From a virus: 64,000 nucleotides of DNA. Below the pieces are notes generated by a model. The model searched no databases. It was given only the letters and a program-made list of their open reading frames with translations, and had not been told where the DNA came from. Location of the stretch: the IMG/VR virus record IMGVR_UViG_3300025000_000065, positions 1 to 64,000 of that record. One strand, given 5' to 3'. Shown one piece after another: positions 1,222 to 54,703 of the stretch; position 1 is the stretch's first letter, and every line of letters starts with the position of its first letter. The position numbers and the translations under genes are program-made.

Positions 1222-1342
1222 ATCTAATCTCCTTTTCTTCCTCTTCCTCAAGAGAAAACTATGAAATAAATTCTATAAAAATAAATTTTATAATTTAATC
1301 CAATAAAATCACTATTTTATTTTTCAATATTGTTTCAATAAA

Positions 1343-2194
1343 TTATTTTGTTTTATAAACCTCTCCAATTGGAGTTAAAGAACCGTTATTGTTTACAAGG
1401 TTGAAATCATACCAACCATCAGGGATATATTCAGCCTCAGGATCATATCTATTGGTAAAATAGCCATATTTAGTTATATATTCTTTGCTATCAATTACAT
1501 CTAATAATGATGAAAAAGATTCTGTATTTCCTGTTGTGTCTGCAAATTCAGTAACCCATATCTCAGGATGAACATCAGAAAATCTATAAATCATATATTC
1601 CATATCAATCCACCATATGTCTAATTGTTCAACTGTAATCCAACTTTCTACATAACCATGAAATCCATAATATTGTGGTTTTTGAATATTGGGATAATTA
1701 TCACGTAATTCAATAAGAAAATCTATAAACCACCATGAAGCCCACGCTGAAACATTTCCAACTACTAATTTTGCATTAGGTCGTGCTTGTATGAAATCAG
1801 CGTATCTTTTTGCGCCTTCAATTGGTGATATTGCCGATCCATAGGGAGCAACGTTGTTTGGTTCATTCAAAAATAAAATAAAACCATTATAATCTATTGG
1901 CAAACATTCTGGAACTAATCCAGCATAAGACATAGGAATGTACCTATTATCATTCAATCTAGTACAATCACACGACCATACATAATACCAACCTGCACCA
2001 ACCATATCTAAATCTGATAACTGATTGGTAACTAGGGCTATTCCTTTATTTTCATCATAATGAGGAGATATATAGTTTTTGAGTACAAGAGGAATAAAAA
2101 CCCGATATTCTTCATTTCCATAAGCAGGAACACTACGAGATAAAAGACATGCTATTAAAATAAGAAGAATAATTAAAAATATTTTACGCTTCAT
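1343..2194 (-). CDS. Secreted glycoside hydrolase, GH128/Glyco_hydro_cc-like
   Basis: N-terminal signal peptide; WYYVW, FLNEPN, GFHGY and IWVTEF clan GH-A type motifs; YRVFIPLVLKN motif after the signal peptide. Confidence 0.7.
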   Translation of the reverse strand: MKRKIFLIILLILIACLLSRSVPAYGNEEYRVFIPLVLKNYISPHYDENKGIALVTNQLSDLDMVGAGWYYVWSCDCTRLNDNRYIPMSYAGLVPECLPIDYNGFILFLNEPNNVAPYGSAISPIEGAKRYADFIQARPNAKLVVGNVSAWASWWFIDFLIELRDNYPNIQKPQYYGFHGYVESWITVEQLDIWWIDMEYMIYRFSDVHPEIWVTEFADTTGNTESFSSLLDVIDSKEYITKYGYFTNRYDPEAEYIPDGWYDFNLVNNNGSLTPIGEVYKTK

Positions 2195-2258
2195 TGAATT
2201 CCTCCCATTTCATTATTTTTTTGTTTAAATGCAATTTTATTTAAATTGTTTTTTATTA

Positions 2259-2663
2259 TTAAAATTCATCATCTTCTAAATCATCTAATTCAATATCTTC
2301 AAAATATTTTGCTGAATTTCTGCCTTCAGAATAAACATTATCATAAAGCAATTCTTTTAAGGTTTTAGAAAATTGAAAAACAATTCTTTTTGATTCGTCA
2401 ACCCATGCTTCTTTTTTCTTTAATCCAATCCACATTCTTCTTGCTGGAATTGTTTTTACATAAATTTTTCCAAGTCCATGAATCTTTAAGATTTTCTCTG
2501 CAATAATAGCACGAGCTATAATTCTAATTACAGATCTCCAAAATATTCTAGTATCTGATATTGTAAATCCAGCATCTTGCGATACTAAATGCAGAAATTT
2601 ATCAGTAGTTATTTCATTTATTTCTGGTCTATTTTGAAGATTGTATTTATTTTTTTTTAACAT
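2259..2663 (-). CDS. HU/IHF-like DNA-binding protein (SPbeta YonN-like position)
   Basis: LKIHGLGKIYVKTIPARR...RIVFQFSKTLKELL matches the HU/IHF beta-arm pattern; acidic tail; near the YonO-type RNAP. Confidence 0.75.
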   Translation of the reverse strand: MLKKNKYNLQNRPEINEITTDKFLHLVSQDAGFTISDTRIFWRSVIRIIARAIIAEKILKIHGLGKIYVKTIPARRMWIGLKKKEAWVDESKRIVFQFSKTLKELLYDNVYSEGRNSAKYFEDIELDDLEDDEF

Positions 2664-2725
2664 TTTGTTTTTCCTGTTGAAGTTTTGTTAATTTTAGTAT
2701 ATTCTATACCTATATAGCACAACCT

Positions 2726-3490
2726 TTAAACTGTATAAAAATTCTTTTTTTTATTACTATAATATTTTTTTGCATTTTCATTTATTTCTTTTTTTCTTTT
2801 TTCCTTAAAACATTTTTCACACATTTTTTTGTTCTTTCCTGTTTTTTCAATTTCAATTCCACAAATTTCACAATATGGTTTGTAATAATCAATAAAATTA
2901 TTAAAATTTTCAATAATTATTTTTGGATCGGAATTATCATTTTTATTAATATTAACAATGTAATATGCACCATCATTTCCAAAATTAGTATTAATTATAT
3001 TTTTTTCTAAAAGTTGGTTAAATATCCATTCTTTATTTTTTTCATTAGTTTTTGCAAATTTTAATATATGATAAGGAGTTGTTTTCAAAGTATAGTAATT
3101 AGTATTATTTTCATCAAAATTTTTACCAATAATAAAATAATACTTTGATAAAACAAGCATTATAAAAAGTATTTTTTCAAGGCGATAATTTTTTATGTTT
3201 CTAATTATATTAAATTCGTTCTCAGTAACTACTATGTTTTGAAATTTTTTTATTTTACTTTTCTTAGATGTTTTTATAATATTTAATAAAAATTCTTGAT
3301 ATAATATTTCATTATAGTTTTCTTGACGTTCTAATAGCCAGTTATTTATTTTATTGTATATTTCAGATTCTTCCACACCAATGTTTCTAAAATACATAAT
3401 TAATAATCTAATATCTTTTCCATTCATAAAAGAAGATAAACAATTATTGAACATATTTTTAGCATATGAAAACTCATCCAAAATAATCAT
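2726..3490 (-). CDS. Hypothetical protein with C-terminal Zn ribbon, coupled to the RNAP gene
   Basis: CEIC...CEKC; start overlaps the end of the RNAP ORF. Confidence 0.6.
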   Translation of the reverse strand: MIILDEFSYAKNMFNNCLSSFMNGKDIRLLIMYFRNIGVEESEIYNKINNWLLERQENYNEILYQEFLLNIIKTSKKSKIKKFQNIVVTENEFNIIRNIKNYRLEKILFIMLVLSKYYFIIGKNFDENNTNYYTLKTTPYHILKFAKTNEKNKEWIFNQLLEKNIINTNFGNDGAYYIVNINKNDNSDPKIIIENFNNFIDYYKPYCEICGIEIEKTGKNKKMCEKCFKEKRKKEINENAKKYYSNKKKNFYTV

Positions 3491-6251
3491 AAATTTCTCC
3501 AGTGTAATCAGTGATTTCTATTGTTTTCATTTCATATTTGTTACCCAAATAATTAATGCTTCCTTTTATATCTAAGAATGGAACTTTTACTTCGTCTTGC
3601 TTATTTTTTATAATATTGCTTATTAAATCTTCTCCAAAAACATTCCATAAAAAAGATTTATTGTCAGATGGATGAATAACGTAGCAAATATCAACTGCTA
3701 AATTTGCCAATTCAGATCCATTAGAAGAGATATCATTAGCCAAATTTCTAAAATGGGAATTAAATTGTTCTACGGTTTCATAATTATAATCATAATGTTG
3801 CTGATTTTTTTTATTTATATTTTTCTTTTCTTTTTTATATTGTTTATAAAGATCATATAATTTTTTTAATTTTTCTTTATCTGTATTAATTTCACTGTCT
3901 TTTAATATCAAGATATTTTCTTCACTTACTTTATTAAAATCTTCTGATTTCATTTCTTTTATAGAATTTATCATAAAATTTGAAACATTATTCATAACAC
4001 AATTGGTTTCTAAAAAAGGACTTAATGCATAATATTTATTTACAAAAGATAGTTCTTTTTCACTTAATTGAGTTTTATCTTTTTTATATTGATCAAGAAT
4101 ATCTTCTAATTTCTTCTTAAACTGTGTTCTTACATGAATTAAGTCTATGGACTTATAATAATTATTAAATTTTACATTATATTTTGGATATAGCCATCTC
4201 ATAAAATGAACACGTTGGTTTATACAAATGGCATTTAAAAATTCTTTTTCTTTTATTATTTCTTCGCTATCGGTTTCTTTTATCTTATTCCATTTTGTCC
4301 AATGCATAGGAAATGGTTTAATTTCTAATCCTTTAGTTGCATCAATTGTGCTTCCCTGTTCTTTTCTAAAACATTTCAATCTTTTTATGATTTCATTATA
4401 TTCTTTTGATTCTTCTTCAAATTTAGGCAGAAGAGCAGATGCTGTAGTACCGACATTTGTAACAAATCCAACAGAATTATTGAATCCTCGGATATCAGAT
4501 AAATATAATTCGTTTTTATTAATTATTTTTTTAGGTGCTTTTTTATTTTCATAATCCACAGGTAATCCACCGTACACACCATTTATTATTTCTTTATTAT
4601 TTGTGATACAAACTATGTCTCCATCAAAATCAGATCCACCATGAATTAAACAATCATTTCCAAAAATATTATATACAACACAGTTATCTAAATATTGAAA
4701 CCATTCTTTTATTTTTTCATTATATTTTAAATTAAGAATATTTACTTCACTTCTCCAGATAAGAGGAGCTCTCATTCCTGCTAGTATATATTCTCCTTTA
4801 TTCACCCAATATTTATTATAATGTTCTCCTCTTTGTAATAATCCTTTTATTGGAAGATCAAATATATATTCCAAAAAAGCATAAGGATCAGAAACCATCA
4901 TAGTGTAAGATCCATCAATTATTAACTTTCCTATATATGATTGTTTAATTTTTTTATTTAAACTATGAACAATGTTGTTTTGTACATATGGATCTTTTAA
5001 TAACTGATTATTTAAGATAATGGCTTTTACAACCTTATCATTAATCTTATTGAAAATATTTTTATCATATTCTCCATCAGACATTCTTCCAAGAAAATAT
5101 AATAAAGTTTTTGATATATCAGATTTAATAATACTTTTAAAATATTTTACAGTTGGGGAGCAAAGATTTTCAATAGATTGATTATCAAGATTTAATGCTT
5201 GAATAAACTGATAATTTAAAAAAGTATGCTTTTTCTCATGTTTTGGAGCAACCCTGGTAATAGACCATTGTAAATTATTCGACTTAGATTTTTTCTTATA
5301 TTCTGAAATTGAAGAAAAGGCATTCCATAATTTAAATTGAGATTGTGTTAAAATAACGTCCATGTCTCGAATATTAACATTATTTCCATAAATATCAGTA
5401 ATAAATCTTTTTCCTATTTTATCAGAAAATTTATGAAAATCAATTACGACAACCAGTCCTTTTATAAAATTTGATCGAACAATAAAAGAAGATGGAATAT
5501 AGTCTAGTTCTAATTCTTCAGCCCAATGTTTAGCCATTTTAGGAGATATGATTCCTTGACCGTCCCATAAATTAAAAGTAATATCTCTGTCCATTTCAAT
5601 TACTTCGTCATCGCCATTTTCTATTTCTTTTACAAAATCAACTCTTTCTGTTCTGACAACTTCTTTGTCTGGAACTACACAAAAATAAGGTTCAGAAACA
5701 GGAATAGATGCAGATGTAGATAAACTAAAATAAGCATTATATTTTTCAGGAGTTATCTCGATATCATTTCTATCATTATTTAAAATTGAATACATTTTTT
5801 CTTCATATTCCTGATCAATGTATAAAGCATTATTTCTTCTTGCTTGACCTGCTCCACAAGCAAATCTAATATATTTTTTGTTATTTAATATAAAACCATT
5901 TTTCCCAATATATTTATAATGTCTTATATCATCTACAAAAATTGAAATGATTTCAGGAACAAATAATAAATCTCTTAATTTTTGTTCTGTTTCCAATAAT
6001 TCTTTCAGGTTTTCTTTATTATGAGATCTTCTTTTTATTTTTCTTTTTTCTGATAATAATATATCAATTTCATCAGTATCAATATTTATACCTTTTATTT
6101 GTCTAAGAGTTCTCAACATTTGAGAATCACCTAAAGAAATAATTTTTGAAGATTTTTGCGCCTCTTCAAAAGACATTGTTATATTATAATTTGAATGATT
6201 TAATTGAGTTGTTGAAATTTTAAAAATGTAATACTGTTGAAGTTTTTTCAA
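3474..6251 (-). CDS. yonO: YonO-like single-subunit DNA-dependent RNA polymerase (cellular RdRP-related double-psi-barrel family)
   Basis: About 925 aa; catalytic GGSDFDGD, DGQG, IKG and RAP motifs; likely TTG start at 6251 after AAGGG RBS (ORF track extends to 6314). Confidence 0.88.
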   Translation of the reverse strand: MKKLQQYYIFKISTTQLNHSNYNITMSFEEAQKSSKIISLGDSQMLRTLRQIKGINIDTDEIDILLSEKRKIKRRSHNKENLKELLETEQKLRDLLFVPEIISIFVDDIRHYKYIGKNGFILNNKKYIRFACGAGQARRNNALYIDQEYEEKMYSILNNDRNDIEITPEKYNAYFSLSTSASIPVSEPYFCVVPDKEVVRTERVDFVKEIENGDDEVIEMDRDITFNLWDGQGIISPKMAKHWAEELELDYIPSSFIVRSNFIKGLVVVIDFHKFSDKIGKRFITDIYGNNVNIRDMDVILTQSQFKLWNAFSSISEYKKKSKSNNLQWSITRVAPKHEKKHTFLNYQFIQALNLDNQSIENLCSPTVKYFKSIIKSDISKTLLYFLGRMSDGEYDKNIFNKINDKVVKAIILNNQLLKDPYVQNNIVHSLNKKIKQSYIGKLIIDGSYTMMVSDPYAFLEYIFDLPIKGLLQRGEHYNKYWVNKGEYILAGMRAPLIWRSEVNILNLKYNEKIKEWFQYLDNCVVYNIFGNDCLIHGGSDFDGDIVCITNNKEIINGVYGGLPVDYENKKAPKKIINKNELYLSDIRGFNNSVGFVTNVGTTASALLPKFEEESKEYNEIIKRLKCFRKEQGSTIDATKGLEIKPFPMHWTKWNKIKETDSEEIIKEKEFLNAICINQRVHFMRWLYPKYNVKFNNYYKSIDLIHVRTQFKKKLEDILDQYKKDKTQLSEKELSFVNKYYALSPFLETNCVMNNVSNFMINSIKEMKSEDFNKVSEENILILKDSEINTDKEKLKKLYDLYKQYKKEKKNINKKNQQHYDYNYETVEQFNSHFRNLANDISSNGSELANLAVDICYVIHPSDNKSFLWNVFGEDLISNIIKNKQDEVKVPFLDIKGSINYLGNKYEMKTIEITDYTGEIYDYFG

Positions 6252-6329
6252 ATTGAAAATTTCCCTTGTTGTAATATTCTTTTTTTTTTTTTTTACCAAT
6301 AAAAAATAACTCAATAAATAGAAAGTAAT

Positions 6330-11999: not shown

Positions 12000-12853
12000 A
12001 TGACATTAAAAAAATATACTAAAAAACAATTAATTAATTTGTCGCCTGAATCAATGCTATACCAACATATTGATAATTTAAATTTACCTGAATTTATTAA
12101 AATTGAATTGTTCGAACAAATGAATTTTTTTTCACGAACAAAAAAAATATTAATGAATTCCTGGTCAAAGTGGGAATTTGAAAACTGGTATTATTCGGAT
12201 TAAAAAAAAAAAAATAAGGATATTAAAAAATGAATCAATATTATTATATCTATGGCTTAATGGGTTTAACGTCCTCAAGTACTTACACAAAAAATATTAA
12301 TAGATGGATTCGATTTTCTGAAGAGGAGAAAATTAAATTTGAAAAAAATAACATTTTACCATATGGCGTGACCAAAAAAGGAATTTTTATTAATGTTAAT
12401 AAATTTCATTAATAACAGATCATTAATAACAGATTAGATTAAACAAATAACAAATTATCAAATAAAATTAGAATTTTATCAGGAGATTAAAAAATGGAAA
12501 ATAAAAATATTAAATTAAAATTAGATAATAGTCACGAAAAAACATATAAAAATATTGAATATATTAATTCTATTATTTTTAAAAATAATGATCATGACAA
12601 TAATAAAATCGATAAAATATTAAATAATTATGATTGTATTTTAGCGTATTTTGAAGGACGTTTAAATTGTCAAAATGATGAAATTATTCTAACCAATTTA
12701 AAAATCGAAAATGAAAATTATATCATTGTTGGACAAAATTGTTTAAATAAACCTTATTTATCATCAATAGAATTATATAAAAAATCTGTAGACTATTCTT
12801 ATCCATTAACATATGATTTAATTGATAATTGGATTGATTCTAATAATTGGTAG
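12000..12853 (+). other. Three small early hypothetical CDS (12000-12203, 12230-12412, 12494-12853)
   Basis: ORF track, RBSs, promoter TTGTAT-16-TATGAT at 11915-11942. Confidence 0.65.
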
Positions 12854-13826: not shown

Positions 13827-13958
13827 ACCAATAAAAATTATATTTTATTATCTGATTATTGCCATTATAAAAAATTATAAAATCCTATAATGGCAATGAT
13901 CAGGAAATAAAAAATAAAAATCAAATAACAGATCAAAAAAAAAAAAAGGAATGATATC

Positions 13959-15088: not shown

Positions 15089-15632
15089 AAATAAAACAAT
15101 AAAATAATAAAACAATAAACCATAAAACAAAATAACAGAAAGGGAATAACAGATCACGAAAACAAAAAAAGAAACGCAACAATTGAAAAAGAATCGCAAG
15201 GAAAAAGAAAATAAAAAATTATTGTATTTTGCTTTATTACGTGAAGATAAGGAAAATTAAAAATGGATAATTCAGGATTTTTTATAGCCATAATGGTATT
15301 TATTGGGATTTTTTATATTGTCATTTATGAAATTATTAAAGATAAAATGAAACAAAAAAGAATTGAAGATCAAAATAAATGGAGAAAAAATATATGTAAT
15401 TTTCCTAAGCATAACAGATAAAAAAATAAAAAAATCCTTCCTCCTCCTCTGAATGTGATATCTAAAATTAAAAAAAGATATCACATTCTATTTTAAACAC
15501 ATTTTCCAGTATAATAAAATGATTTATATACTAATAGATATAAAATGATCAATGGTAATTTAAAAACGCTGAAAATGGCTAAAAATAACCAATAAAAACA
15601 GTATTTTATTTAATAAATTGCTGGTTGAATTG

Positions 15633-16136: not shown

Positions 16137-16341
16137 TAACAGAAAAAAATGGAGATTAAATCATGTGGCAAACAAAAATTTTTAAAACAGAAAAATCAAG
16201 AAATAACTGGATTGAAAAAAATAAGAATAAGTATAGAATTGATATTATTTTTGTCAATAATGGCTATGGAATAGAATATAAAAAACTGGTGAAAATTTAA
16301 ATAATAAAATCAAAATTTTATTAGAAAAGGATAACAACAGA

Positions 16342-17934
16342 ATGAAAACATATAATATCAGAATTCATAAAAAAGATGATACTACAATTTTAGAAAAAAT
16401 TCCTGCTTATCTTTATGAATATATGGGATATAAATTTTTAGTACATAAAACCTGGTTATCGATAAAAAATAATGAAAAAAATCCTGCATGGCAAGTATCA
16501 GAATTTGATACTGGTATGGGATTTATTTCATTTTGTGATAGTAAAAAAGAATGTTATGAAAAAATTCATAATTGGTTTAATGTAGACAATATTGGATCAA
16601 GAATAGAATTTTTTGATCAAGCTGTAAAATCTCAAATAAACAGATACGGAAAAGCAAATTAAACAATAACAAAAGGATTGAATAAAATGAGAACAAGAAA
16701 AACATTAAAAATTGGAAGTGAAGTATTATATCAATATTTTAATAAACCTGAAAAAAAGTTTTATGGTGATATCAGAAAAGGAATTGTAAGAGATATTTTT
16801 GATCATAATGGAGAAAAACTTTTTGAAATAGAACACGCAATAGAAGATACAAATATTCTTGTTTCGATAATTGTACATAGAAAAGAAATTAAATCAATCC
16901 TATCATAACAGAAATACAAACCAATAAAAGGTTAATTTTATTAGAATAACAATAACAGAAAATAAAAGGAAAAAATAAAATGAGTGCATTTATAGTAAAC
17001 AAAAAACATATTGATTACCTTGTATCAGCATTATATTATAATAATAAAGATTACAGTAATAAATATATGGATATTCAAGAATTAAACAAAATTGGTCAAA
17101 CCTTAGTTGATGCAAATTATAAAAGTGTTAATTATCGTTATAATGAATCTGAAAAACCATATAAATATATTTTTTCTCAAGTTTTTGCAATTGATTTTAT
17201 TCAAGTATTAAAAGGAATTAATTGTCTTGATTATCAATCCTGCGAATATCCTGCATGGGAAAGATCAAAAGCAAAAAAGATTTTAAATCAAATAAAAGAT
17301 CAATGTATTTATCATCTTACCGATTCTGAAAAATATAAATGGGAAATTAGATAATAACAGAATATAAAAGATAATGGAGAATAACAAAATGAAAATAAAA
17401 TCAAAAGATAACAGAACAATATATGAACCAGTTGAATTTCAATATATTATTCCCAATGGAGTATTTTATCTTGAAAATCCACTTGAAAATAAAAATGCTT
17501 TACCTCATTATACATGCGAAAATTTTGATCCTGAATTGATGGTATGGACAGTTTATTTTGAATGGCAAAATACTAATCCCTGGATTAAAAAAGAATTTCG
17601 ATCCTTCCAATATGGAAATAAATTAGCTGGATTAATCAATTCAATAGATTCAGATATGTTTTAAGGGAATAACAAAATGATCAAAGTATTTTTTTATGGC
17701 GAAGATGATAACAAAAGAAAAATAACAGTAAAAATGAGTAGCATTAAATCTTATGATAAGTTTATTGATGAATATAAATATATTGGAGGATTCAACAGGT
17801 TTTCAAGTGAAATATATGGTGATATGAATAAAAAAGAATCTGATCGATATATCTTTATTCCTGCGAACAACAGAGGATTTGAAGTAATTTATAAAATGTT
17901 ATATGGTCATTCTCCATATGTAGTAAGAAAATAA
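16342..17934 (+). other. Five early hypothetical CDS (16342-16662, 16678-16908, 16980-17354, 17374-17664, 17677-17934)
   Basis: ORF track, RBSs; 16980 carries MSAFIV...LDYQSCE. Confidence 0.65.
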
Positions 17935-18022: not shown

Positions 18023-20514
18023 ATGACGACACCAGTAATTTTTAGAAAATTTAAAGAAGGCGATGTAATAGCGTTATTTCCTACAATTCCTTATTCCTGG
18101 AAATATGATTTTACATGCTATCAACATATTGGTCAACATTCTGGATGTGAAGGAATTATCACAGAATTAACAAAGTTATGTAAACCCGAAGAATATAAGG
18201 ATTTATTAGAAGAATTAATCTCAATGGGTTATGATGATTTAGTTGTAAGAAAAAAGATTACCTACAAACATTTTTTAGAACGAGAAAAAAGTATGAAGGA
18301 GATAACAGAATGAAAATTAAATTAAATAAATCAGAATATTGGATTTTATTAGAAGCATTAAGACGATATTTAAAATTCAATGATCAAAATAAATCAACAA
18401 CAGAATGTTGGACAGGTTTAGAAACATTGACGACAGCAAAAAGTGTTATTGAAAAAGGATATATGAATTGGGTATATAAAAAACCTTATCGATCATTAGG
18501 ATGGTTGAAATTAACAGAAAAAGGATCAAAGATTATTGAACAATGGATAAACGATGGTTATACAGAATTAGAATTTATTGAAGGTTTCGATTGGGAATAT
18601 CCAACAAAAAATAAAAATTTACCTGGTCAATTAGTTGAAATAAATTTGTAAAACCAATAAAAAGATTGTTTTATTAGATAATAACAGAAAGGAATTGTAA
18701 CATGAATAATAATAAAAGAAAAACAATTATTTATGAATATGATAAAATTAATACGTTTATTGGAGAAAAATCTTTATCTCCATATGAAAAAAAATTACTT
18801 CATCAATGGAAAAAAGAATGTGGATTTATTGGTTATATTTCAGGATATCGTTATTGGAACAATGAAACAGAATCGGTATTAGTTTATTGTAAAAATTATC
18901 CTGGAATTACTGATATTGAAAACAGACGATCAAACGGATTACATAAAGCAAAATTTTATTATCTATAACAGAAAGGATTTTATAAATGTATATTCAATGG
19001 ATTTGTGGAAGTTGCAAAGAAATAAATTCAAATAACAATACAAAAAATAGTGTTTGTACATGTGGTGCATGTGGAAAAAAGAAAAATATTAATTATATTA
19101 AAAAATATTTTATATATATTATAACCAATAATTTATCAATTAATAATTTTAAAAGCTAATAATAAAAAGGATTTTATAAATGGATAAAACATTTTATATT
19201 CAAAAAAATATTGGAAGGTCAAAATATGTGCTGAATTATCACGATGGAATTCAAACACATAAAGATAACAGTCCGTTTTTTGGAATTGAGATTTTTTCAA
19301 ACATAAAAAAATTGAATAACAGAATTAAAGAATTAAGATTGTTGGGATATCAGGAAAAATATTAATAAAAAGGAAAAAATTATGATTATTGAAGTTGAAA
19401 ATAAAACGTATGAATATAATAAAGAAAATCCAACCAATATTTTAGCCATACTCAACCATAGTCCATTTAGATTATACAAGGTTAACAAAAATTGGGTTTA
19501 TCATATAGTTGACAACGGTAACATTGATTCAATATTGATTGTCGATGGTGGATTTGTTATTCAGGATATAAAACAACAAAGAAGTGTTATGTTTATGGTT
19601 GATGATATAGATTGTATTGCTGTTTATACGGATGTTGTTGAAATTTATTATCATAAACATATTACTTATACTCAATTTGAAGGGATTATAAAATGAGAAA
19701 TAATAATGATGAAAGTAATCCAACATGCAAGGGAATTGAATTAGAAGATTTATATAACAAATTGTCAAATTTTTATGAGGATAATTATTTTGAATATTAT
19801 GATAATAATGAAATTCATACAAAATTAAGGGAAATTCAAGATTTATTACATGAAACCTTAAAATTAATGGAATGGCAAATGAAAAACAACAATCAAGTAA
19901 AGCTTGACAATTGGAAAAGAAATTCTAATAATCAATAAAAGGAAAATAAAATGTATATTTATAACTATCAATTAATCGATGCAATAAAAAAATTAGAAAA
20001 TGAGATTAAATCTCATGCTGGAAAAGATTCAATAAAAAATTATTTGTTATTTGAATATAATCCTTTAGGTGATGCTGATAAAAGAATTTGTTTATATAAA
20101 ACCGATGGATTATTCACTGATAATAAAGATAACAAAAATTTCAAAACCTGTTTTACGGCAAACTCAAAGGTATTTTCAAGCAATGATGAATTTTATGCCA
20201 TTGTACCAGTAAAACAACTGTTAGAATCCCTTAAATTCTACGATAAAAGCAGTATGGTTCAAATATCTATTGATGAAAATTATAAAATGATAAAAAAATA
20301 TTGTCAAATATTTGATACCACAAAATTAGAAAAACAAAAAACATTAAGAAATTTAGATTATAGTTATCTTTATAACAGAGGAAATTTTACCGTAAAAACA
20401 ATTTGTTTTGTTATTGATGGATGTAAAATAAATTTTATTTCTCAAGAAGGAAGAGATGAAATTCTTAAAAACATTTTCCAGGACGAAGAAAGAATTTATG
20501 AAATTATTGAGTAA
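18023..20514 (+). other. Seven early hypothetical CDS (18023-18313, 18310-18651, 18702-18968, 19180-19365, 19382-19696, 19693-19938, 19951-20514)
   Basis: ORF track, RBSs, ATGA overlaps. Confidence 0.65.
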
Positions 20515-20559
20515 CAGTTAACAACCAATAAAAAATCTATTTTATTAGAAAATTGGTAC

Positions 20560-20587
20560 TTGTAATTTGAAAATAAGTTGCTATAAT
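20560..20587 (+). promoter_or_regulatory. Sigma70-type promoter
   Basis: TTGTAA-16-TATAAT with TGn; upstream AAAATTGGTAC also precedes the recombinase promoter at 44190. Confidence 0.65.
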
Positions 20588-23600: not shown

Positions 23601-24969
23601 AGAATAACTTGCGGTTATCGCTGGATGGTTATGGATGACAGAACACATGAATTCATTGTATATGAAAGAAAACCATACCAAAAAAATACTTATATAATTG
23701 GTCAAACTAAAGATGAAGATTTAGCATATGAATTTTTGACTACTAATATATGAAAGGAAAACGGATGGGATTGTTTACTTATGTTATTATTCCCGATGTT
23801 CTTTTGCCAAAAAAATATCAAGGATTTAATGAATGGCAAACTTATCAAATTGTAAAAAGAGAAATGGGAAAGATAGAAGTTTTAAATGATGGAACAATGG
23901 TTTATAATAAGAATGAATTTTATTCTGGAAACAATGAGATTTTTAAATTGACAAATAATAATTCTAATGGAAATGAGATTGTAAATATTGTGGCAAGCAA
24001 CGGAATGGATGTTAATTCTAAAAAGCATAAATTTATATTTGCCAAAATGAAAATTGAAAATTCTAAAGTAATAGAAGTATTTGATTTTGTAAAAAAATAA
24101 AAAGGAGAATAGTATGGTTAAAATATTTAATATAAAAAATTTTTCAATTATGTTATGGATCGATTTATTTTTTTATGATGATTTTAGTTTTTATTTTTAT
24201 TTACTTCCAACAATACAGTTATCGGGATCAAAATATGTTTCCAGGGCATCAATTCAATGGTTATTTTTTGAAATAGAAATAAGTTATTTTTTTGATAATA
24301 GAAATTAAATAAAACCGTTATTTTATTAGAAAAGGAGACTTAATTTATGACAAGTATGCTTGGAGCGTTTTTATTGATGTTGTTTGGAATTATAATTAGT
24401 GGAATGAAAAAAAAAGTAAAATAACAGAAAAGGAGAAATAAAAACATGAAATTAAACCCATTTGGTAATAACAAAAATAAACAGTTGGTCAAACAATTAC
24501 AAGAACTTAAAGCAGAAATTTTGAGAAATTCTTTGATCCCAAGAATTCGTTATCAGGGTTTTATTGTTAGAGATAGGAAAACCAAACAAGCTTTAGGTGG
24601 AAAAAATATTTCTGGATTTTTTGTTTATTTAGATAAAGAATTGGCTCAACAACAATTAGATAGTATAATGAAATCATCTAAAGAAAAATATGAAGTTTTT
24701 CCCGTAGATGTTGTTTATACCGAAGAAAGACAGGAACAATGAGAATTATATTTTATGATCAAAAAGAAGACGATAACAGTGAAATGACAATTGATCAGCT
24801 AATCCAATATTTACAAGTGATCAAATTAGAATGGGGAGGCGAGTGCATTATGGGACTTCCTCAAGAATTTCAAGATGATGATGGAGAAACAGTAAGATGG
24901 AATGCTTCAATTAGCAACATTGAAATTGAAACTTCATTACCTGATAAAACGGAAATTTTATTATATTGA
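20610..24969 (+). other. About fourteen small hypothetical CDS, several acidic (e.g. 20903-21289, 21276-21719, 21741-21983, 22029-22442, 22506-22811)
   Basis: ORF track, RBSs, tight packing. Confidence 0.65.
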
Positions 24970-26056: not shown

Positions 26057-26095
26057 TAAAACGATGATTTTATTTGGAAAAAGTGTGAATTAAAA

Positions 26096-30640: not shown

Positions 30641-31217
30641 ATGAATAAAATGATTATTTTATTAGGAGAAATAATGCCAAATCAAGATGTTATTGATAGA
30701 TATTTTAAATATAAAACAGAAGGGTATGAGATTGATCAAGATTATATTCAATATAGAACATCAATAGATAATAATTCATTCGGATCAATTTGTATCGAAG
30801 TTCTTGAAAAAGATAAACCCATTCATACTTCATTGAAATTATGGTTTGATAGAAAAACAAGTCTTGATATAATAAATAAATTAATTAAATGTTTAGCTGA
30901 TTATCCAGAAGATCAAAAAGCTAGAATTCAAAATGGTTTTGATTGTTCTTGTAAAACACGAATCGAGCATGAAGCCAAATAATAAAAAATAAACAACTAC
31001 ACGAAAAATAAACAAGGAGTAAAAATTGGTTAAAAAAACTACCACCAGTATTGTCCTAAAAAAAGTACAGAAAAATCCAGAAATCTTAAAGCAAGCAATT
31101 GAAAATTTATCTTTGGCAGTCAATATTTTAGAGTTTATAGGATCAGAGAATATTGCGTATAGAAAAACAATTAAGAAAATCGTTGAAGATTGGGATGAAT
31201 GGATGGTAGAAAAATAA
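30641..31217 (+). other. Two hypothetical CDS (30641-30982, 31026-31217)
   Basis: ORF track, AGGAG RBSs. Confidence 0.6.
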
Positions 31218-34038: not shown

Positions 34039-34137
34039 AAATAAAAGAACGATTTTATTATAAATTCCTTATTGACTTTATTTTATATTAATGCTAAAAT
34101 CTTTATATAAAAATAATTAAATGAAAGGAAAAATATT

Positions 34138-36423: not shown

Positions 36424-36810
36424 ATGAGATTATGGCATGAAAGTTTATTAGATAAATTACCAAGACAACAGGTGTTAGGACTTCACAGAGAAATTTGTGC
36501 CCTCAGGGGGAACGGATGGGGAAAGAAACATAGCGTAGTGGATTACGTTTTTGAAAATCCTTATTTGAAATTAGTTGCCTATCATATGCGAGTAATGGCA
36601 GAAATGGAACGAAGAGGATATATTGTTGATTCCGAATGGAAAGAATATACTTATCGAGGCAAGAATTTAAAACATGATAGTTATAATAGTGAGGATGTGG
36701 CTGTCCTACAAGTGTATCTAAAGCGTTTTCCAGTGTATTCTGAGCATAATGAGGCATATTTACAAGAATGCTTGGATAATCTGTCTAAAAAGGGCGCAAA
36801 ATTACTATAA
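36424..36810 (+). CDS. TIGR02328/pyrimidine-dimer glycosylase-like protein
   Basis: MRLWH..L..LPRQQ.LG.HRE.CALRG.GWGKKH signature; start 36424 after AGGAG. Confidence 0.8.
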   Translation: MRLWHESLLDKLPRQQVLGLHREICALRGNGWGKKHSVVDYVFENPYLKLVAYHMRVMAEMERRGYIVDSEWKEYTYRGKNLKHDSYNSEDVAVLQVYLKRFPVYSEHNEAYLQECLDNLSKKGAKLL

Positions 36811-36842
36811 AAGCATGATTTTATTAGGAAAGAAGATAACGT

Positions 36843-38776
36843 ATGATCGTTGAATGGATTGAAAAATGCAAAGAATGTAAAGGAACTGGAATCTATGTTG
36901 GAGTAGCTGAAAATTATAGTGACTATGGAGTTATATGTTCTGTATGTAAAGGATCTGGAAAAAGACATAGAAAATTTGAATATGAAGAATTCACTAAAAA
37001 AGAATTTGCCAATGTAAATAAAGTTTTAGAAGTTAATCCAGGAATTATTATTGGAAAAACATGTTGGGATGCTGGTGGAATTCATTATATTGATTGGTAT
37101 AATGGCAAAGAATTTCCTATTGGATCAGAAATGAGAAATTATGTTTGTCCTTCCTGGTGGTTTCAATGTGCTGATTATAGCAAAAAACCAAAATGGAAAA
37201 AATGTGTTTCTGGTAGATTCTCCGATTGTAAACATTTTAAAAACAAAGATCATTGTTGGAAAAAATGGGATGAGGAAAATAAAAAATGACATCAAAAGAA
37301 AAGCAAAAATTAATAAAAAAATCACTTAATTATGGTAAAAAAGAATCGGAAATGACTTTACAACAGATTAAAGATAAATATTTCCCCAATAGAAATTTAA
37401 ATGATTTGAGGGGAGTTATAAAAAAAGAAAATCCAATAATGGATAAAATTAATGAAATTATTAAGGAGAAGAAAAATGAAGACTTGTACTGATGAAAATA
37501 AAGGATGGACATACAATGATGGTCGCTGTGAAAAATGTGGAAAACCATTTGTTTATGTCGGAGACGTTCCTCTAGGTGGATTTACTAAAGGTTTAGAACC
37601 CTATTGTACCTGTAATCAAAATGCAATCAGTATAAATTCGGATTTCCTAAGCTTATTTAATAATCAAGGTTGGACTTGTCCTAAATGTGGAAAAGTATTT
37701 TCTCCTAGTATTATTGAATGTATATATTGTAATAGAATAACTGTTACAACTACGAAAACAGATACTTATAATCTTGAAATTCATACAAAAAATCATGACT
37801 GAAAAAATAATAATTGAAAATTTTACTGATGTAATTTGTAAATCATGTGATTCTTGTGGAGTAACTGAGTGTTGCCCACCTTTCCAATGTTTGAAAAAGG
37901 CAGTTCAATTAAATAATAGATGTTCATTTGGGGAAACATATTTAAAAGAAGTTGAATTATATTATTTGTTAGGAAAGACATTGCATGATTTAATTTTGGA
38001 AAAAGGAAATATGAAAAATGTTCGTGTGGTAAAAAATATGTATGATGGTTTACACAAGAAAATATATAATGAATAAAATAAAAAATCCTTATTTAAAATA
38101 TTTTATTGAGCGATATTAAACCAGAAAAGATAAAGAAGAAAAATTTGTTAATTGGGATTATAATAGATTGATGAATAAAACAGTAATAAAAGAAGTGTTT
38201 TATTGGAAAAATTTAAAAGGAGATTCATGAATCAAGATCTATGGTTTTTGAAAGAGCAATATGATTTGCTAGAAGAATCAGCAGATAGGAACTTAGATAT
38301 ATTGCGTAAAATGAATGACTATTTTGGAAAATTCATCATTATGCCACAATTTTTAGCTCTTCTTATTATGAAAAGTAAAAAATATAAAAGGTTAGATAAA
38401 GAATTTGACTTAATATCTGCTAGACATAATAATGAACGAGCAACCCTTAAAATATTACAGAAAATGATTCATGAAATTTTAAATTCATCTATGATAATTG
38501 AAATTAATAAAATAAAATTTTAGTTTTATTAGATTTAAAAACCAATAGAATGATGGTTTTATTAGGAGTAACATGGGCGATTATATGAAAATGGAAGATT
38601 TTTTAAGATTTGTAGAAAAAGGATATTTAATTGATCATGATGGTTTAGGATATTTATGTTCTTCTGAAAACACGAAAACAGATCCCAAAATTTTAATTTA
38701 TCCTTCTGATGTGAATTATAAATTTGATAAAGAATATTTAAATACATTTCCTGGTGTTATATGGTACAATAGATAA
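36843..38776 (+). other. Six small CDS including Cys-rich/Zn-finger proteins (36843-37289, 37286-37492, 37452-37802, 37774-38076, 38203-38523, 38573-38776)
   Basis: CxxCxGxG repeats in 36843; CxxC pairs in 37452 and 37774. Confidence 0.6.
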
Positions 38777-39735: not shown

Positions 39736-39998
39736 TAAATGAAATATTGGTTTTATTATAAAGAAAGGAATAATTTAAATGACTGAAAATAAAGTTTTTA
39801 TAATTTTTTGTTACTATACTGTTCTTTATATAATTCTAGCATCTATTTTAAAGAGTGTACGTTCAGATATTTCAGACATAAGTTTTGTCATAGGATATTG
39901 TCTTTTTGTTGTATTGGGAATGCTAAAAGATATTATTAATTTTTCCAAAGATTTTTAAATATAATAAAAAATTGATTTTATTGGAAAGGAAATGAGAA

Positions 39999-44247: not shown

Positions 44248-45138
44248 ATGTACATATCAAAATATAATAATTTAGATTTCGTAAAAGAATATTCATTAGT
44301 TCTGTCTTTAGATAAAGATGAAAAAACAATTCAAAGTTATTTAAGTTCTATTGATCGATTTTTTGATTTTTTAAAAATTCAATCTAATGAAGACATTTTT
44401 AAAATTTCACCATTAGAGGGAAGAGAATATCAACAACATTTAAAAGATCATGCCCTTTCTAATAATTCAATAAACACTTACCTTCTGTTCTTAAAAGTGT
44501 TTTTTAATTGGTTAGTCAATGAAGAAAAAATTGAAAAATCCCCTTTGACAAAAGTAAAAAACTTAAAAGCAAATGAAATCAATAGGGCTTTCTTCAGTGA
44601 AGAAGAAGTAAAAAAGTTTTTTGAACACTGTAAAACAAATGAAGAATTTGCCATGTTTGGAATTTATTTTACAACTGGATTACGAAGATCAGAATTAATT
44701 AACATAAAATTAAATCAATTAGATGGATATACTATTCATAATGTAATTGTAAAACGAGGTAAAACCAGGGATATTTATATTCCAGATGATGTTTTAGTAT
44801 ATTTGGCAAAATATCTTCGAGAAAGAAACAGAAAATATCCCAATAATGAATATCTGTTTGTTTCCAATTGGGGTAAAAAGTTTTCTGGTGAAGGAATTAG
44901 ATATAAGTTTAATTCTATTTTAGAACGTGCTGGATTTCCAATAGAAAGAATTAACGAACTCCATGTACATTCTACGAGACATACTTTCGCAACAAATTTA
45001 TTGAGTAATGGAGAAAATATGAAAACCACTCAGGAAAGTTTAGGTCATTCAGATATTCAAACAACTCAGAAAATTTATGCTCATATACATAAAAATCGTG
45101 TATCAGAAGCAATGAGAAATCAATCTATTTTATCTTAA
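44248..45138 (+). CDS. Tyrosine recombinase (XerC/D-like), catalytic residues intact
   Basis: SAM-like N-domain; TGLRRSEL (R), VKRGK (K), HSTRH (HxxR), LGH, IYAH (Y). Confidence 0.92.
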   Translation: MYISKYNNLDFVKEYSLVLSLDKDEKTIQSYLSSIDRFFDFLKIQSNEDIFKISPLEGREYQQHLKDHALSNNSINTYLLFLKVFFNWLVNEEKIEKSPLTKVKNLKANEINRAFFSEEEVKKFFEHCKTNEEFAMFGIYFTTGLRRSELINIKLNQLDGYTIHNVIVKRGKTRDIYIPDDVLVYLAKYLRERNRKYPNNEYLFVSNWGKKFSGEGIRYKFNSILERAGFPIERINELHVHSTRHTFATNLLSNGENMKTTQESLGHSDIQTTQKIYAHIHKNRVSEAMRNQSILS

Positions 45139-45154: not shown

Positions 45155-46338
45155 ATGTGCAGAAAATGTTTTTTAAGAGGTAAAAAGGCAAAACTTTCAA
45201 AAGGTAAAATAAATTTTTTTGCTCATGAATTATTAAAAGGTCATGGAATTCCAATGTTTTCATATTCGCCAAATAATTATGCAATCGAAGGTAGAGTATG
45301 GCAAATTGAAAGAGAAAAAACAAAGAAAAATAAATATTATAATAAAGCAAGAAGAAAAATTAATAAAGAATTTGAAACTTATTGAAAGGAGAAAATAAAT
45401 TATGAAAATGCAAGAAATGATCAAAGAAATGCGAAGCGTTATGGGTGAAGATAAAGATATATCGATTAAACTATATGATAATGAAATATCTTTTTATTTA
45501 TTTGAAAAAGAAATTGGAATTTATTTAAATAAATATAATTATAATTATCATCCATATATTGACCTTGAGGGATGTGATGGTGTACATGCTCGTTTAGGAT
45601 TTAAAGAAATACGGGTTATTCTTATTGTAATGGCAATAATTGAAAATAACTTAAAGGAAATTTTAAGTTGGATCAATGTTGATTCTCAATAATTTTATAA
45701 AAAGAAAGGACTGATAAAATGCAATATCATTATATTCTTCAAATAGATTTAGGCAATGGAGCATATTCTGTAACCGATGGATATTTAGATGTGAATGATT
45801 ATCTTGATTTGAGTTTTGCAAACCAACAATTAAAACCAGAAAAAATTATATTTCAAAGTAATCATGCTACAATTGTTTATTGGAATGATGGTACAAAAAC
45901 AGTTGTAAAGAGAGCCGATGAAGATGATAAATTTATTCCCGAAGTAGGATTTGCTATGGCTTTAGTAAAAAGAATATATGGAAATAGATCAGAAGTTTTA
46001 AGATGGATTGAAAATGCTGAGATAAGGGAGTAATAAAAATGTCTGATAATAAAAATAAGGAAATCTTAAATAAATCTTTACCAGAATATCTTCCAGAATT
46101 TTTTGAAGAATTAACAAAACGAATTATTGAAAAAAACGAACAATACGGAGACGCATGGATAGAACGTGGATTAATTTATAATGGTCTTACTCAAGAACTA
46201 AGATTTAGTAATTGGAGTGATGATAAGTTTTTTAATCATTTTTGGTTAGATGAAAAATTACCCTGGTTAGACTTTGCTGGAGAAGCATTTATTGGATTCA
46301 TTCGTGAAAAGTATTTGAAAAACGATGATAAAATCTAG
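45155..46338 (+). other. Four hypothetical CDS (45155-45385, 45402-45692, 45719-46033, 46039-46338)
   Basis: ORF track; 45719 has the ATIVYWNDGTKTVVK motif typical of phage hypothetical proteins. Confidence 0.6.
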
Positions 46339-46360
46339 GTTTTATTTGAAAGGAAAATAT

Positions 46361-48055: not shown

Positions 48056-48056
48056 T

Positions 48057-51067: not shown

Positions 51068-51136
51068 TAAATAAAATTATTGTTTTATTGAGTTTATTTA
51101 TTGTTTAAAATTTTATTAAATTAAAGGAGAAATTGT

Positions 51137-52189: not shown

Positions 52190-52202
52190 TTATTATTAAA
52201 AA

Positions 52203-52230
52203 TAGGTGGAATTGAAATATATTCCACCTA
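52203..52230 (+). terminator. Hairpin/terminator
   Basis: TAGGTGGAAT...ATTCCACCTA. Confidence 0.55.
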
Positions 52231-52248
52231 AATAAAATAGGAGATTTT

Positions 52249-52464
52249 ATGAGAGAATTAAAAACCGTAAAAATGAGCGCAGTTGACGAACTCAGTAATG
52301 TAACAGTAAAACTTGATAGGAAAAATTTACCTGATGAGGAAACCGAAGATATTCAAATGATCACAGAAAATTTCGTTGAACTTCTACGAAAATTACATTA
52401 TAATCCTTCGGATATTCGTAATGCTGTACGTGATGTTTTAGAAAACTATGATTTTGAAGATTAA
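52249..52464 (+). CDS. Hypothetical protein
   Basis: ORF track, AGGAG RBS. Confidence 0.6.
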   Translation: MRELKTVKMSAVDELSNVTVKLDRKNLPDEETEDIQMITENFVELLRKLHYNPSDIRNAVRDVLENYDFED

Positions 52465-52474
52465 GGAGTAATTA

Positions 52475-54568
52475 ATGAAATATGTTTTAAATGAGCCAAA
52501 GGTTGCGTTAGAAAGTTTTCGACATTATTTACGTGGAACTAAAAAGGTTGGTAAAGCACAACCACTATATTCAAAAATTCAAACTCCTTATGGCGAAAAA
52601 ACAATGGGAGAAATGAATGTTGGAGATGAAATTTTTACTATTGATGGAACTGTAACAAAAATCACTGATGTTTTTCCCCAAGGTGTTAAAGATATTTATG
52701 AAGTTACCTTTTCTGATGGAAGCAAAACAAGATGTTCGGAAGATCATTTGTGGTCTGTTAGAACTAAAAAAATGAAGATCCTCGGAAAGGGATTTAATCG
52801 AATTATGACTTTAGGAGAAATTAAAAAAGATTATTTTTCTTTGGAGAAAGACGGCTATAGACATCCTAAATTTGAAATTCCCATTGCAAGTGCCGTAGAA
52901 TTTGAAAAAAGAGAAATTCCATTAGATCCCTATTTGCTAGGATTATTGTTGGGAGATGGATATATCTGTGGAAGAGTTGTTGGATTTTCCAATACAGAAG
53001 AAGATGTTTTAGAGAAAATTGAAAAAATATCTTTTGAAAAATATGGATGTGGTTTTGTTAAAAATTCAGAGCATAATTGCACGCATCATATAAAAAAACC
53101 AGATGGAGAATACAGAAATCCAATTCGAACAAAATTATCAGAATTGGGATTATTGGGATTAAAATCAAAAGATAAATTTATTCCCCAAGAATATTTATAC
53201 AATGATTATTCAACAAGATTATCTATATTACAAGGATTAATGGATACAGATGGACACATTAGTCAAGAGGGACAAGTTAATTTTTCTTCAACATCTTTAC
53301 AATTAATTGAAAATGTAAAGTGGTTAGTTCATTCCTTGGGAGGTCTTGCCACAATTCATGAAGATGCTAGAATTGGAAAAGAATCTTATTACTTAATTAT
53401 TAGAGCAAATGGATTTGTACCCGTCACATCAGAAAAACATTCTCCAAAATTTGAAAAACATAATCCAAATTTAACTAGATTTATTTCCAATATTGAATAC
53501 ATTGGTAAAGAAGAATGTCAATGTATTAAAGTTGAAGATGATTCAGAATTATATTTAACAGATGAGTTTATTGTTACCCATAATAGCACGTTGTTCCGAG
53601 ATTTAATTGTCGAATATTATGGAGATCCAAAATATGGATTAATGATTGCTCCAGGCAATGAAACAGGTTTTAAAGCCTTAGATAATCTGTATGCTATGGA
53701 AGCTCAAACATGGGAAGATTTCTGCGAAATTGTTAATGATTTAGTATTGAATAAGGCAGACAATGAATTTAAGATTATAGCAATTGATACCGTGGATGAA
53801 CTAATTGCAATTGCAGAAGAAAAAGTATTGAAAATTCATTATCAACGAAAAGGCGAAAAGGCAACTTCTATCAATGCTGCTTTAGGTGGATATGGAGCAG
53901 GAAAGAAAATGCTTCGTAAACTCATCAATGATAAAATCAAAGAAGTTGAAAATGCAGGTTATACCTGGTTTTTCGTTGGACATACGAAAGTTCGTGATAT
54001 TAAAGAAAAGGGACAAGAGGAATCATATCAACAATTAACTTCCAATCTTGAGTTTGATTATGATGCATTATTTACAGATAAAGCAGACATTATTGCCTCT
54101 TGTTACATAGAAAGAAACGTAAAAGATAATTCTTTAGAATCAACTACACGATACATTTATTTTCGCCCTAATGGTTTTGTTGATGCAGGAAGTCGTTTCA
54201 AAGATATGCCAGAGCGTGTTCCTATGACTGCACGTGATTACATTAGTGCTTTTGAACAAGGTGCAAAAGGAACTTATACAAAACCATTGACGAAAAAAGA
54301 ATTGGATAAACGAAAGAAACAAGAAGAAACAGAACGTCAAGAACAAGCTCAAAAATTTACTGAAGCCAAAAAATCTAATTTTGAAGGATTAGAAACAGTT
54401 GAAGATTATCACAAAAAGATTCAGGAAATGAAAGAAGCATTGGACTCTGAGACTGCACGTGAAAAAGGTGAGCAATTAAAAGAAGCTGGATTGCCTCTAA
54501 GATTTAAAGAAATTGAAGATCTCGAACAACTAAAATTATTCTTAAAAATCGTTTCTTCAGACGATTAA
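52475..54568 (+). CDS. AAA_24/Sak4-like ATPase (YorG-like) containing an intein
   Basis: Walker A GTKKVGK/ST split by the intein; Walker B IIAIDT; FVGH motif. Confidence 0.8.
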   Translation: MKYVLNEPKVALESFRHYLRGTKKVGKAQPLYSKIQTPYGEKTMGEMNVGDEIFTIDGTVTKITDVFPQGVKDIYEVTFSDGSKTRCSEDHLWSVRTKKMKILGKGFNRIMTLGEIKKDYFSLEKDGYRHPKFEIPIASAVEFEKREIPLDPYLLGLLLGDGYICGRVVGFSNTEEDVLEKIEKISFEKYGCGFVKNSEHNCTHHIKKPDGEYRNPIRTKLSELGLLGLKSKDKFIPQEYLYNDYSTRLSILQGLMDTDGHISQEGQVNFSSTSLQLIENVKWLVHSLGGLATIHEDARIGKESYYLIIRANGFVPVTSEKHSPKFEKHNPNLTRFISNIEYIGKEECQCIKVEDDSELYLTDEFIVTHNSTLFRDLIVEYYGDPKYGLMIAPGNETGFKALDNLYAMEAQTWEDFCEIVNDLVLNKADNEFKIIAIDTVDELIAIAEEKVLKIHYQRKGEKATSINAALGGYGAGKKMLRKLINDKIKEVENAGYTWFFVGHTKVRDIKEKGQEESYQQLTSNLEFDYDALFTDKADIIASCYIERNVKDNSLESTTRYIYFRPNGFVDAGSRFKDMPERVPMTARDYISAFEQGAKGTYTKPLTKKELDKRKKQEETERQEQAQKFTEAKKSNFEGLETVEDYHKKIQEMKEALDSETAREKGEQLKEAGLPLRFKEIEDLEQLKLFLKIVSSDD
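52556..53584 (+). mobile_element. Class 3 intein with LAGLIDADG homing endonuclease (343 aa)
   Basis: Starts AQPL, block B DHLW, block F ECQCI, ends VTHN before Ser+1; LGLLLGDG and LQGLMDTDG motifs. Confidence 0.9.
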
Positions 54569-54703
54569 TTCGAATAAAAAATAAAATGTTCATTTTATTG
54601 GTTTTAGAAGGCTATTAGAGGCATGTTTTAGGCGATTTGGAACGTTTTTAATGGTATATTATCAGTAGACAGCTTTATAGGTATATTATCGGTAGAATTC
54701 AAT

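Follow-up and report, generated by a model that had tools for sequence, protein, structure and literature searches.

The described systems closest to the repeated palindrome AATAAAA-N6-TTTTATT of the virus record IMGVR_UViG_3300025000_000065 are the sites of tyrosine recombinases, Xer/dif and Cre/loxP. Two inverted arms surround a 6-bp centre in such sites as in the palindrome, and the present genome likewise codes for a recombinase whose catalytic set is complete, as judged from sequence. In phage SPbeta the consensus of the symmetric arms extends to about 11 bp, which gives the 11-6-11 layout of dif. The identical arms of the palindrome fit those systems which employ a single recombinase, namely XerH, XerS, XerA and Cre. 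Xer/dif and Cre/loxP have one site per genome, whereas dozens of sites are present here and the spacer is different at every site. Positions 1-64,000 of the record (the window) were analysed together with the whole genome of 111,969 bp. The palindrome is real and conserved across many large phages of Gram-positive bacteria. As far as sequence comparison can tell, it most likely forms the site array of a phage-encoded tyrosine recombinase of the family of SPbeta YomM.

The pdif sites of dif modules on Acinetobacter plasmids (PMC6449649) are likewise Xer-type sites present in many copies in the accessory part of the replicon, where they flank small variable gene modules. In pdif, the XerC arm differs from the XerD arm and the host supplies Xer, whereas the palindrome has identical arms and a phage-encoded candidate enzyme. 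Unlike pdif, palindromes are found in the core and late parts of the genome too, and some are within genes. Integrons, with attC, attI and IntI, are similar in having repeated recombination-type sites after short, mostly promoterless, co-oriented genes. However, attC sites are imperfect palindromes of 57-141 bp which recombine as folded single strands with extrahelical bases, and they are found near intI, attI and a cassette promoter. None of this was found here. The sites are perfect palindromes of 20 bp with a free 6-base centre, and the recombinase genes are situated kilobases away from the dense arrays.

The stoperators of cluster A mycobacteriophages also comprise more than 20 copies of a short intergenic site which is partly oriented with transcription, but each is an asymmetric 13-mer to which a monomeric immunity repressor binds (PMC9283540), whereas the palindrome core is symmetric with a gene-direction bias at the last spacer base. 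In SPbeta, the recombinase-fold protein MrpR acts on a dispersed repeat, the SPbeta repeated element (SPBRE; PMC10516654), which differs from the palindrome in sequence and in its position at promoters. Unlike stoperators and SPBRE, the symmetric palindrome is found in several phage groups outside the SPbeta-like phages. The PeSL elements of T4-type phages (PMC2839356) are repeated intergenic elements of variable small-gene regions and, similar to the palindrome, are situated at swap boundaries between close relatives. Each PeSL unit carries a strong sigma-70 promoter and a terminator stem-loop and acts through homology. The palindrome is mostly promoterless, would form an unstable hairpin and co-occurs with a recombinase family. 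Neither the palindrome nor a role for YomM was found described in the searched literature.

Number, spacer and placement of the palindromes

The window contains 20 exact copies of the palindrome while dinucleotide shuffles predicted 0.12, and the whole genome contains 27. The 6-bp core, ATAAAA-N6-TTTTAT, is present in 32 copies and is the commonest palindrome of the genome. The original prediction, made from the sequence alone, had counted about 26 copies with a fixed 6-bp spacer between 1302 and 54599. This region holds 19 exact and 9 one-mismatch copies, and every position named in that prediction was right. The fixed spacer was also confirmed, as exact copies in the window with spacers of N3, N4, N5, N6, N7, N8 and N9 numbered 0, 1, 0, 20, 0, 0 and 0, respectively, and only N6 is enriched. 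Inverted arms around a spacer of fixed length in the 6-8 bp range are characteristic of core sites of dif/lox type. One-mismatch copies numbered 11 with N6 and 2-8 with other spacer lengths; as this is only about a twofold difference, roughly half of them may be chance.

Twenty-two of the 27 exact copies are situated outside called open reading frames (ORFs) in a genome which is 90% coding (P=3e-18). Among the five others, three represent mis-called ORF starts and two are truly intragenic, one at 59739 in a RecJ-like gene and one at genome position 66990 in a nucleotidase gene; both are kept in a relative. The copy at 59739 overturns the earlier statement that the helicase-to-polymerase block is free of sites. 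Typically, a copy is situated 0-15 nt past a stop codon and 10-50 nt ahead of the next start codon, and the TAA within the arm often serves as stop codon of the upstream gene. Across the motif-bearing phages, copies were also found in convergent and divergent regions. The single genes reported to be bracketed by consecutive sites were indeed so bracketed. The last spacer base is mostly a purine, as had been noticed (A 20, G 5, C 2 and T 0 among the 27 exact copies), and it tracks gene direction.

Two relatives were used for comparison. G001 shows about 83% nucleotide identity and is collinear with the genome at 20-78 kb, while G003 is a 130-kb phage with a polymerase 46% identical. Locus L040 is effectively the same strain as G001 and so gives no independent comparison. 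No close nucleotide relatives were found in the phage collection. The copies and two genes of the window are as follows.

1302..1321, exact copy, within the minus-strand gene block
12461..12480, one-mismatch copy (TTTTATC), start codon 14 nt downstream
13830..13849, exact copy, stop codon 4 nt upstream
15591..15610, exact copy, sigma-70-like promoter match (15679) about 70 nt downstream
16303..16322, exact copy, start codon 20 nt downstream
16923..16942, exact copy, gene junction
18656..18675, exact copy, gene junction
20527..20546, exact copy, TTGTAA-16-TATAAT promoter match 13 nt downstream; in G001 an additional gene is inserted directly after it
21979..21998, exact copy, overlaps a TAA stop; upstream gene missing from G001, with the junction at the left arm
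22441..22460, exact copy, overlaps a stop; G001 syntenic on both flanks
22815..22834, one-mismatch copy, G001 counterpart exact
22843..22862, one-mismatch copy, G001 homology stops at its right edge
23505..23524, one-mismatch copy, possibly chance
24308..24327, exact copy, right flank shared with G001, whose left gene and spacer differ
24943..24962, one-mismatch copy, immediately 5' of the RNA ligase start; kept in G001
26055..26074, exact copy, overlaps the RNA ligase stop
26481..26500, exact copy, ATG directly after
30644..30663, exact copy, followed by AGGAG and ATG; left flank non-homologous in G001
34040..34059, exact copy, TTGACT-17-TAAAA promoter-like site 12 nt downstream (read by eye)
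36806..36825, one-mismatch copy, spacer GCATGA, against TCATGC (its reverse complement) in G001 (reverse strand 12708)
38185..38204, exact copy, gene junction
38511..38530, exact copy, overlaps a gene end
38544..38563, one-mismatch copy, start codon 10 nt downstream
39738..39757, one-mismatch copy, stop codon 3 nt upstream
39963..39982, exact copy, right arm and ribosome-binding site common to a different gene in G001
46327..46346, one-mismatch copy, kept in G001
51070..51089, exact copy, upstream gene (50474-51067) missing from G001
54580..54599, exact copy, stop of the AAA_24/LAGLIDADG gene 12 nt upstream
59739..59758, exact copy, inside the RecJ-like gene; kept in G001
44248..45138 (+), Xer-like tyrosine recombinase, catalytic residues complete; unlikely to be the partner of the palindromes
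3474..6314 (-), YonO-type single-chain RNA polymerase of 946 amino acids, which marks the phage as SPbeta-like

The spacer at 36806-36825 looks like an inverted spacer when compared with G001, or may represent two substitutions. Two sigma-70-like promoters, at 20560-20587 (TTGTAA-16-TGnTATAAT) and at about 34072-34100 (TTGACT-17-TAAAA), start 12-13 nt past a palindrome, and the palindrome centre is near -58 relative to both. A scan of sigma-70 promoters gave 174 matches and 160 in shuffles, which is uninformative in such AT-rich DNA, and no classic terminators were found on the plus strand at 11.5-31.4 kb (early region). Between 16900 and 22500, in the early region, the heptamer ATAACAG recurs just 5' of ribosome-binding sites; as its distance to the palindrome varies, it belongs to the ribosome-binding site rather than to the palindrome.

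Conservation of the palindrome and its co-occurrence with the YomM family

G001 possesses 19 exact copies, and G003 possesses 10 exact and 56 core copies with only 0-2 copies for other spacer lengths. When one mismatch was allowed, 15 copies were found in SPbeta (2 in the backwards-read control) and 14 in BUCT082 (control 0). Core copies were also in excess of the control in c-st (13 vs 1), Perkons (9 vs 1), Geobacillus GR1 (8 vs 0), Enterococcus 9183 (6 vs 1), Staphylococcus CF9 (5 vs 0) and SpP (6 vs 1), Lactobacillus Satyr (3 vs 0) and SA-C12 (3 vs 0), and Bacillus Skywalker (17 vs 0). Altogether, the core is enriched in SPbeta and 13 other phages of several taxa, the present genome included. 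The motif was not above control in Enterocloster CB473P1 and PMBT24, Thomasclavelia TR-TP1, Bacillus 0305phi8-36 and EZ-2018a, and a 137-kb Staphylococcus phage. Between the present genome and G001, the arms are 97% identical while the flanks are about 85% identical. The spacers, at 89-94% against about 85% for the flanks, show only marginal constraint.

In GR1, 9183 and SpP (whole records L106, L107 and L114), core copies follow each other at even intervals of about 10-14 kb (P=0.0004-0.05), most clearly so in GR1 with 8 sites (P about 0.0004-0.001). The same test was not significant in the SPbeta-like phages Perkons and c-st and in whole Skywalker. One copy of Skywalker is situated inside a 9-kb tape-measure gene. 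The even spacing and this copy suggest a role tied to the physical genome.

The recombinase encoded at 44248 had been proposed as the enzyme acting on the sites. It is an Xer-like tyrosine recombinase and, as claimed, all the catalytic residues are present. Its homologues, however, are strong in TR-TP1 and CB473P1, which lack the motif, and absent from BUCT082 and Perkons, which bear it. Because of this mismatch in distribution, the 44248 protein is probably not the partner, and that part of the original prediction is not retained. An all-against-all protein comparison of the present genome, G003 and SPbeta gave only 11 shared proteins. Among them is a recombinase-fold protein matching SPbeta YomM, encoded at genome 85134-86129 (-), which scores above the Pfam threshold. 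The gene is situated outside the window, behind a RuvC-like gene, and adjoins the tape-measure gene.

The YomM family was found in every motif-bearing SPbeta-like phage tested and is absent from CB473P1 and TR-TP1. It is also found in phage groups other than the SPbeta-like phages, and enrichment of the core was seen there too. Four phages in addition to CB473P1 and TR-TP1 lack both a YomM homologue and the motif. Overall, 14 of 17 phages which possess the family show enrichment, against none of 6 which do not (Fisher P=0.0008). When 12 members of the family were aligned, R, K, HxxR, H and Y proved to be kept in all. This argues for catalysis, unlike in MrpR of SPbeta, a non-catalytic recombinase-fold protein which acts as repressor (PMC10516654). 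A candidate cognate recombinase with the R-K-H-R-H/W-Y set which co-occurs with the site is found in the YomM family and not in the Xer-like family of 44248. The tyrosine-recombinase core-site geometry which had been recognised in the palindrome is borne out, a recombinase family co-occurs with the motif across lineages, and the spacers are over-dispersed as non-cross-reacting sites would be.

No two sites within one genome share a spacer. Spacer pairs within one mismatch of each other, in either orientation, numbered 3 in the present genome against 11.8 expected (P=0.003) and 20 in G003 against 34.3 expected (P=0.004), both judged by column shuffles. Such over-dispersion is expected if similar spacers would let different sites recombine.

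A tentative reading, to which nearly even weight is given, is that the palindromes represent core sites of dif/lox type, scattered along double-stranded DNA and recognised by the phage-encoded YomM-family tyrosine recombinase. What the analysis shows is that the sites exist, are conserved and co-occur with this family; binding, catalysis and a spacer-restricted choice of partner are inferred, as follows. Each site would be composed of an invariant inner arm ATAAAA, weaker symmetric positions to about 9-11 bp and a locus-specific 6-bp crossover spacer, and would be bound, and probably cut and rejoined, by the enzyme encoded at 85134-86129. As every copy has its own spacer, a site would be expected to exchange productively with no partner but its counterpart at that locus on a second DNA molecule. 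The two molecules might be sister copies or relatives infecting the same cell, or the exchange might join both ends of a chromosome with terminal redundancy. Deletions within one genome would be avoided, and gene swaps at the junctions would be a by-product of allelic crossovers.

Several points weigh against this reading. A YomM homologue without the motif is found in phiL47, BceA1 and the metagenomic phage MT835469. Common descent of the structural modules which carry yomM could lie behind the co-occurrence. The recombinase gene belongs to the late region for tail and lysis and so is awkwardly placed for acting directly after injection. The over-dispersion of spacers rests on a column-shuffle null and could reflect avoidance of all-A/T spacers. 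The gene-direction bias of the last spacer base (A in 20 of 27, never T) is left unexplained by a symmetric dimer. Finally, strong conservation is limited to 6-7 bp per arm, fewer than in the known arms of Xer or Cre sites.

A wider and rather doubtful proposal is that large Gram-positive phages possess 'multi-lox' genomes, in which mutually non-reactive sites would be served by one late-expressed active tyrosine recombinase. If so, RecA-independent crossovers could take place between genome copies at fixed points. Circles could be made in this way from permuted DNA with terminal redundancy, concatemers could be converted, and relatives infecting the same cell could exchange cassettes naturally. 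In another version of the proposal, the sites would serve as site-specific swivels. The sites may have been multiplied at small-gene junctions in the SPbeta-like phages, which use headful packaging from concatemers (bioRxiv 10.1101/2021.11.22.469490). A true link with YomM would explain an orphan recombinase gene in several groups of large Gram-positive phages. It would also represent a new way of phage genome recombination or organisation and a natural collection of dozens of recombination sites which share one enzyme yet do not cross-react. SPbeta has been studied for 50 years, and the idea is directly testable in Bacillus subtilis with existing SPbeta genetics.

DNA-level and RNA-level features of the palindrome

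Copies follow a stop codon and precede the next ribosome-binding site, a position that would suit an mRNA hairpin between cistrons which acts in processing, in translational coupling or repression, or as a weak terminator. In G003, the TAA of the left arm is the stop codon at 25 of 50 sites and the start codon is situated about 14 nt past the right arm, and the bias of the last spacer base by gene direction also agrees with an RNA element. The predicted hairpin, however, has a free energy of just -0.2 to -1.3 kcal/mol at 37 C. No compensated arm variants were found, and single arm changes which keep a G-U pair (A>G in the left arm, 18) are similar in number to the mirror-image changes which break the pair (T>C in the right arm, 12), so that no covariation and no bias to G-U-compatible changes is seen. 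At genome 86691 and at SPbeta 99496, the site is situated a few bases past a strong intrinsic terminator and ahead of the promoter/operator region of the next gene, and would therefore be in the transcript of neither gene. Copies in convergent and divergent regions and inside genes, along with the symmetry of the flanking arm positions, are also against a hairpin. The RNA-hairpin alternative which the original prediction had offered is accordingly weak and appears most improbable.

Pooled half-sites showed that the arms are symmetric as far as position -3 or -5, or out to about 9-11 bp, with outer positions which differ between phages. C is found at -3 in 31 of 64 half-sites of the present genome while T is found there in G003. 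In SPbeta, T-Y-T-R-A ahead of ATAAAA gives the 11-6-11 layout. Six to seven bp per arm are invariant; the outer positions carry 0.4-0.7 bit in SPbeta, and position -3 about 0.5 bit in the present genome and G003. The flanking 'CC ... AG/GG' noticed earlier is thus real, but it represents a symmetric extension of the arms. The symmetric arms, the unstable hairpin, the lack of compensated variants and the copies inside genes or between terminator and promoter favour a dimer on double-stranded DNA. The palindrome is therefore a DNA-level element and is probably the DNA site of the recombinase rather than a signal of gene expression.

The main remaining rival holds that the sites are operators or roadblocks for a non-recombining dimeric DNA-binding protein, either MrpR-like with a recombinase fold or another phage regulator, which silences or insulates transcription units. 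Mycobacteriophage stoperators (PMC9283540) and the CIR sites of phiC31 are its precedents, and MrpR shows that SPbeta possesses a recombinase-fold repressor (PMC10516654). The sites are dispersed, intergenic and partly linked to gene direction, some are situated just 5' of promoter-like sites (20527 and 34040) or past terminators, and their arms are conserved without covariation, all of which a regulator would accommodate. On the other hand, no lineage of the YomM family has lost any part of the catalytic set, which points to chemistry in addition to binding. Two exact copies are within genes and conserved, the over-dispersion of spacers would be unexpected for operators, and the motif is evenly spaced also in phages in which no further gene for an integrase or repressor was seen in the regions sampled. 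The operator reading is hence regarded as unlikely, though it is the chief competitor of recombination by the YomM family.

Two specific SPbeta elements were compared with the palindrome and rejected. For the SPBRE/MrpR operator, named as an alternative in the original prediction, an SPBRE-like consensus of about AAAAATATGTATATAAT was derived from four MrpR-bound regions; it differs in sequence and in position. The AAAAATATGTATATAAT-type motif is common to the regions upstream of yorE, yorM, yorZ and yosX, and the palindrome copies of SPbeta are situated elsewhere. The promoter of YonO was also discarded, as the yonK-yonN interval of SPbeta, which holds the YonO start site, contains no copy.

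In the original annotation of SPbeta, the copy at 2627 (L028 2622-2651) is labelled 'stem_loop', and the flanks there extend the pairing to about 12 bp. At genome 74230-74420 and 86560-86800 (L029/L030), a palindrome is followed by two to three ACCCC-ATATAT-GGGGT boxes, which are NrdR-box-like. The boxes are situated 5' of the endolysin gene and of the RuvC-like/YomM-like operon, and at 86.7 kb a strong terminator precedes the palindrome and the boxes.

Gene exchange at the sites and genome context

Comparison of the genome with G001 revealed 26 gaps. Gene junctions with a site were broken in 11 of 19 cases and those without a site in 23 of 74 (P=0.04); counted at gene level, the numbers are 11 of 15 and 25 of 56 (P=0.08). 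SPbeta and phi3Ts showed the same trend, with 3 of 6 against 39 of 115 when SPbeta was the reference, and also 6 of 9 against 42 of 115. Synteny breaks are only about 2-3-fold enriched at sites, and most breakpoints have no site. At eight orthologous sites, the site is kept while one flank is unrelated, and the spacer travels with either side. Two indels were read in detail and contained one site or half a site, never being flanked by two full sites. One deletion junction carries the direct repeat GATTTAGA..AATAAAA, and in one case the homology spans the right arm and the ribosome-binding site up to the start codon of a different gene.

The integron-like cassette system which the original prediction had favoured, in which the 44248 recombinase would excise, capture and shuffle accessory genes bounded by palindromes, has to be judged on these data. 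It would agree with the complete catalytic set of the 44248 protein, with the several single genes bracketed by sites and with those differences between the genome and G001 which end at a site. Against it, 23 of the 34 broken junctions have no site, the inspected indels have no two full flanking sites, and orthologous sites are positionally stable with the same spacer. The homologues of 44248 are distributed among motif-less phages and missing from motif-bearing BUCT082 and Perkons, and neither an attC-like structure nor an integrase-proximal array is present. As the enrichment of breakpoints is modest and most of them are site-less, such a system is not shown, and it is considered very improbable. 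The sites are at most preferred joints, not boundaries of an integron-like system.

Joints of this kind could also arise passively. In the manner of PeSL cassettes of T4-type phages, the palindromes could be linkers without a protein of their own, acting either as brief stretches of homology which general recombination can use or as bent A-tract DNA. Breakpoints touch one arm or the other, and the spacer goes with either flank; the direct repeat at the deletion junction, the unit of right arm and ribosome-binding site common to unrelated genes and the PeSL precedent (PMC2839356) would all suit such linkers. However, 12-14 bases are exact at dozens of loci in phages whose polymerases are only 46% identical, which needs direct selection on each copy, and seven bases are very short for homologous exchange. 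Passive linkers would also leave unexplained the strict N6 and the co-occurrence with one recombinase family. They are therefore thought improbable, and the reading as sites of a YomM-family enzyme is preferred to them.

The phage was recovered from groundwater metagenomes. The ends of its contig overlap with few mismatches (1-228 and 111742-111969), suggesting that the map is circular or permuted and that the genome is probably complete. The polymerase at 3474-6314 (-) is of the two-barrel type and shows 34% identity with its BUCT082 homologue and 27% with SPbeta YonO. A gene for an HU-family DNA-binding protein (2259-2663, -) is situated near it, as yonN is in SPbeta and BUCT082, and a block of helicase, primase, RecJ and family-B polymerase is present. 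Judged by this gene content, the genome is that of an SPbeta-like phage.

Two further features concern other genes. A scan of a genome collection for the host gave only two short contigs of metagenome-assembled genomes, probably mis-binned. A 4.5-kb contig binned as a Patescibacteria metagenome-assembled genome (L017, DIUG01000008.1) encodes a polymerase 92% identical to that of the present phage and is probably a mis-binned phage fragment. The AAA_24 ATPase gene at 52475-54568 (+) contains a LAGLIDADG domain in its middle, which probably represents an intein or an inserted homing endonuclease.

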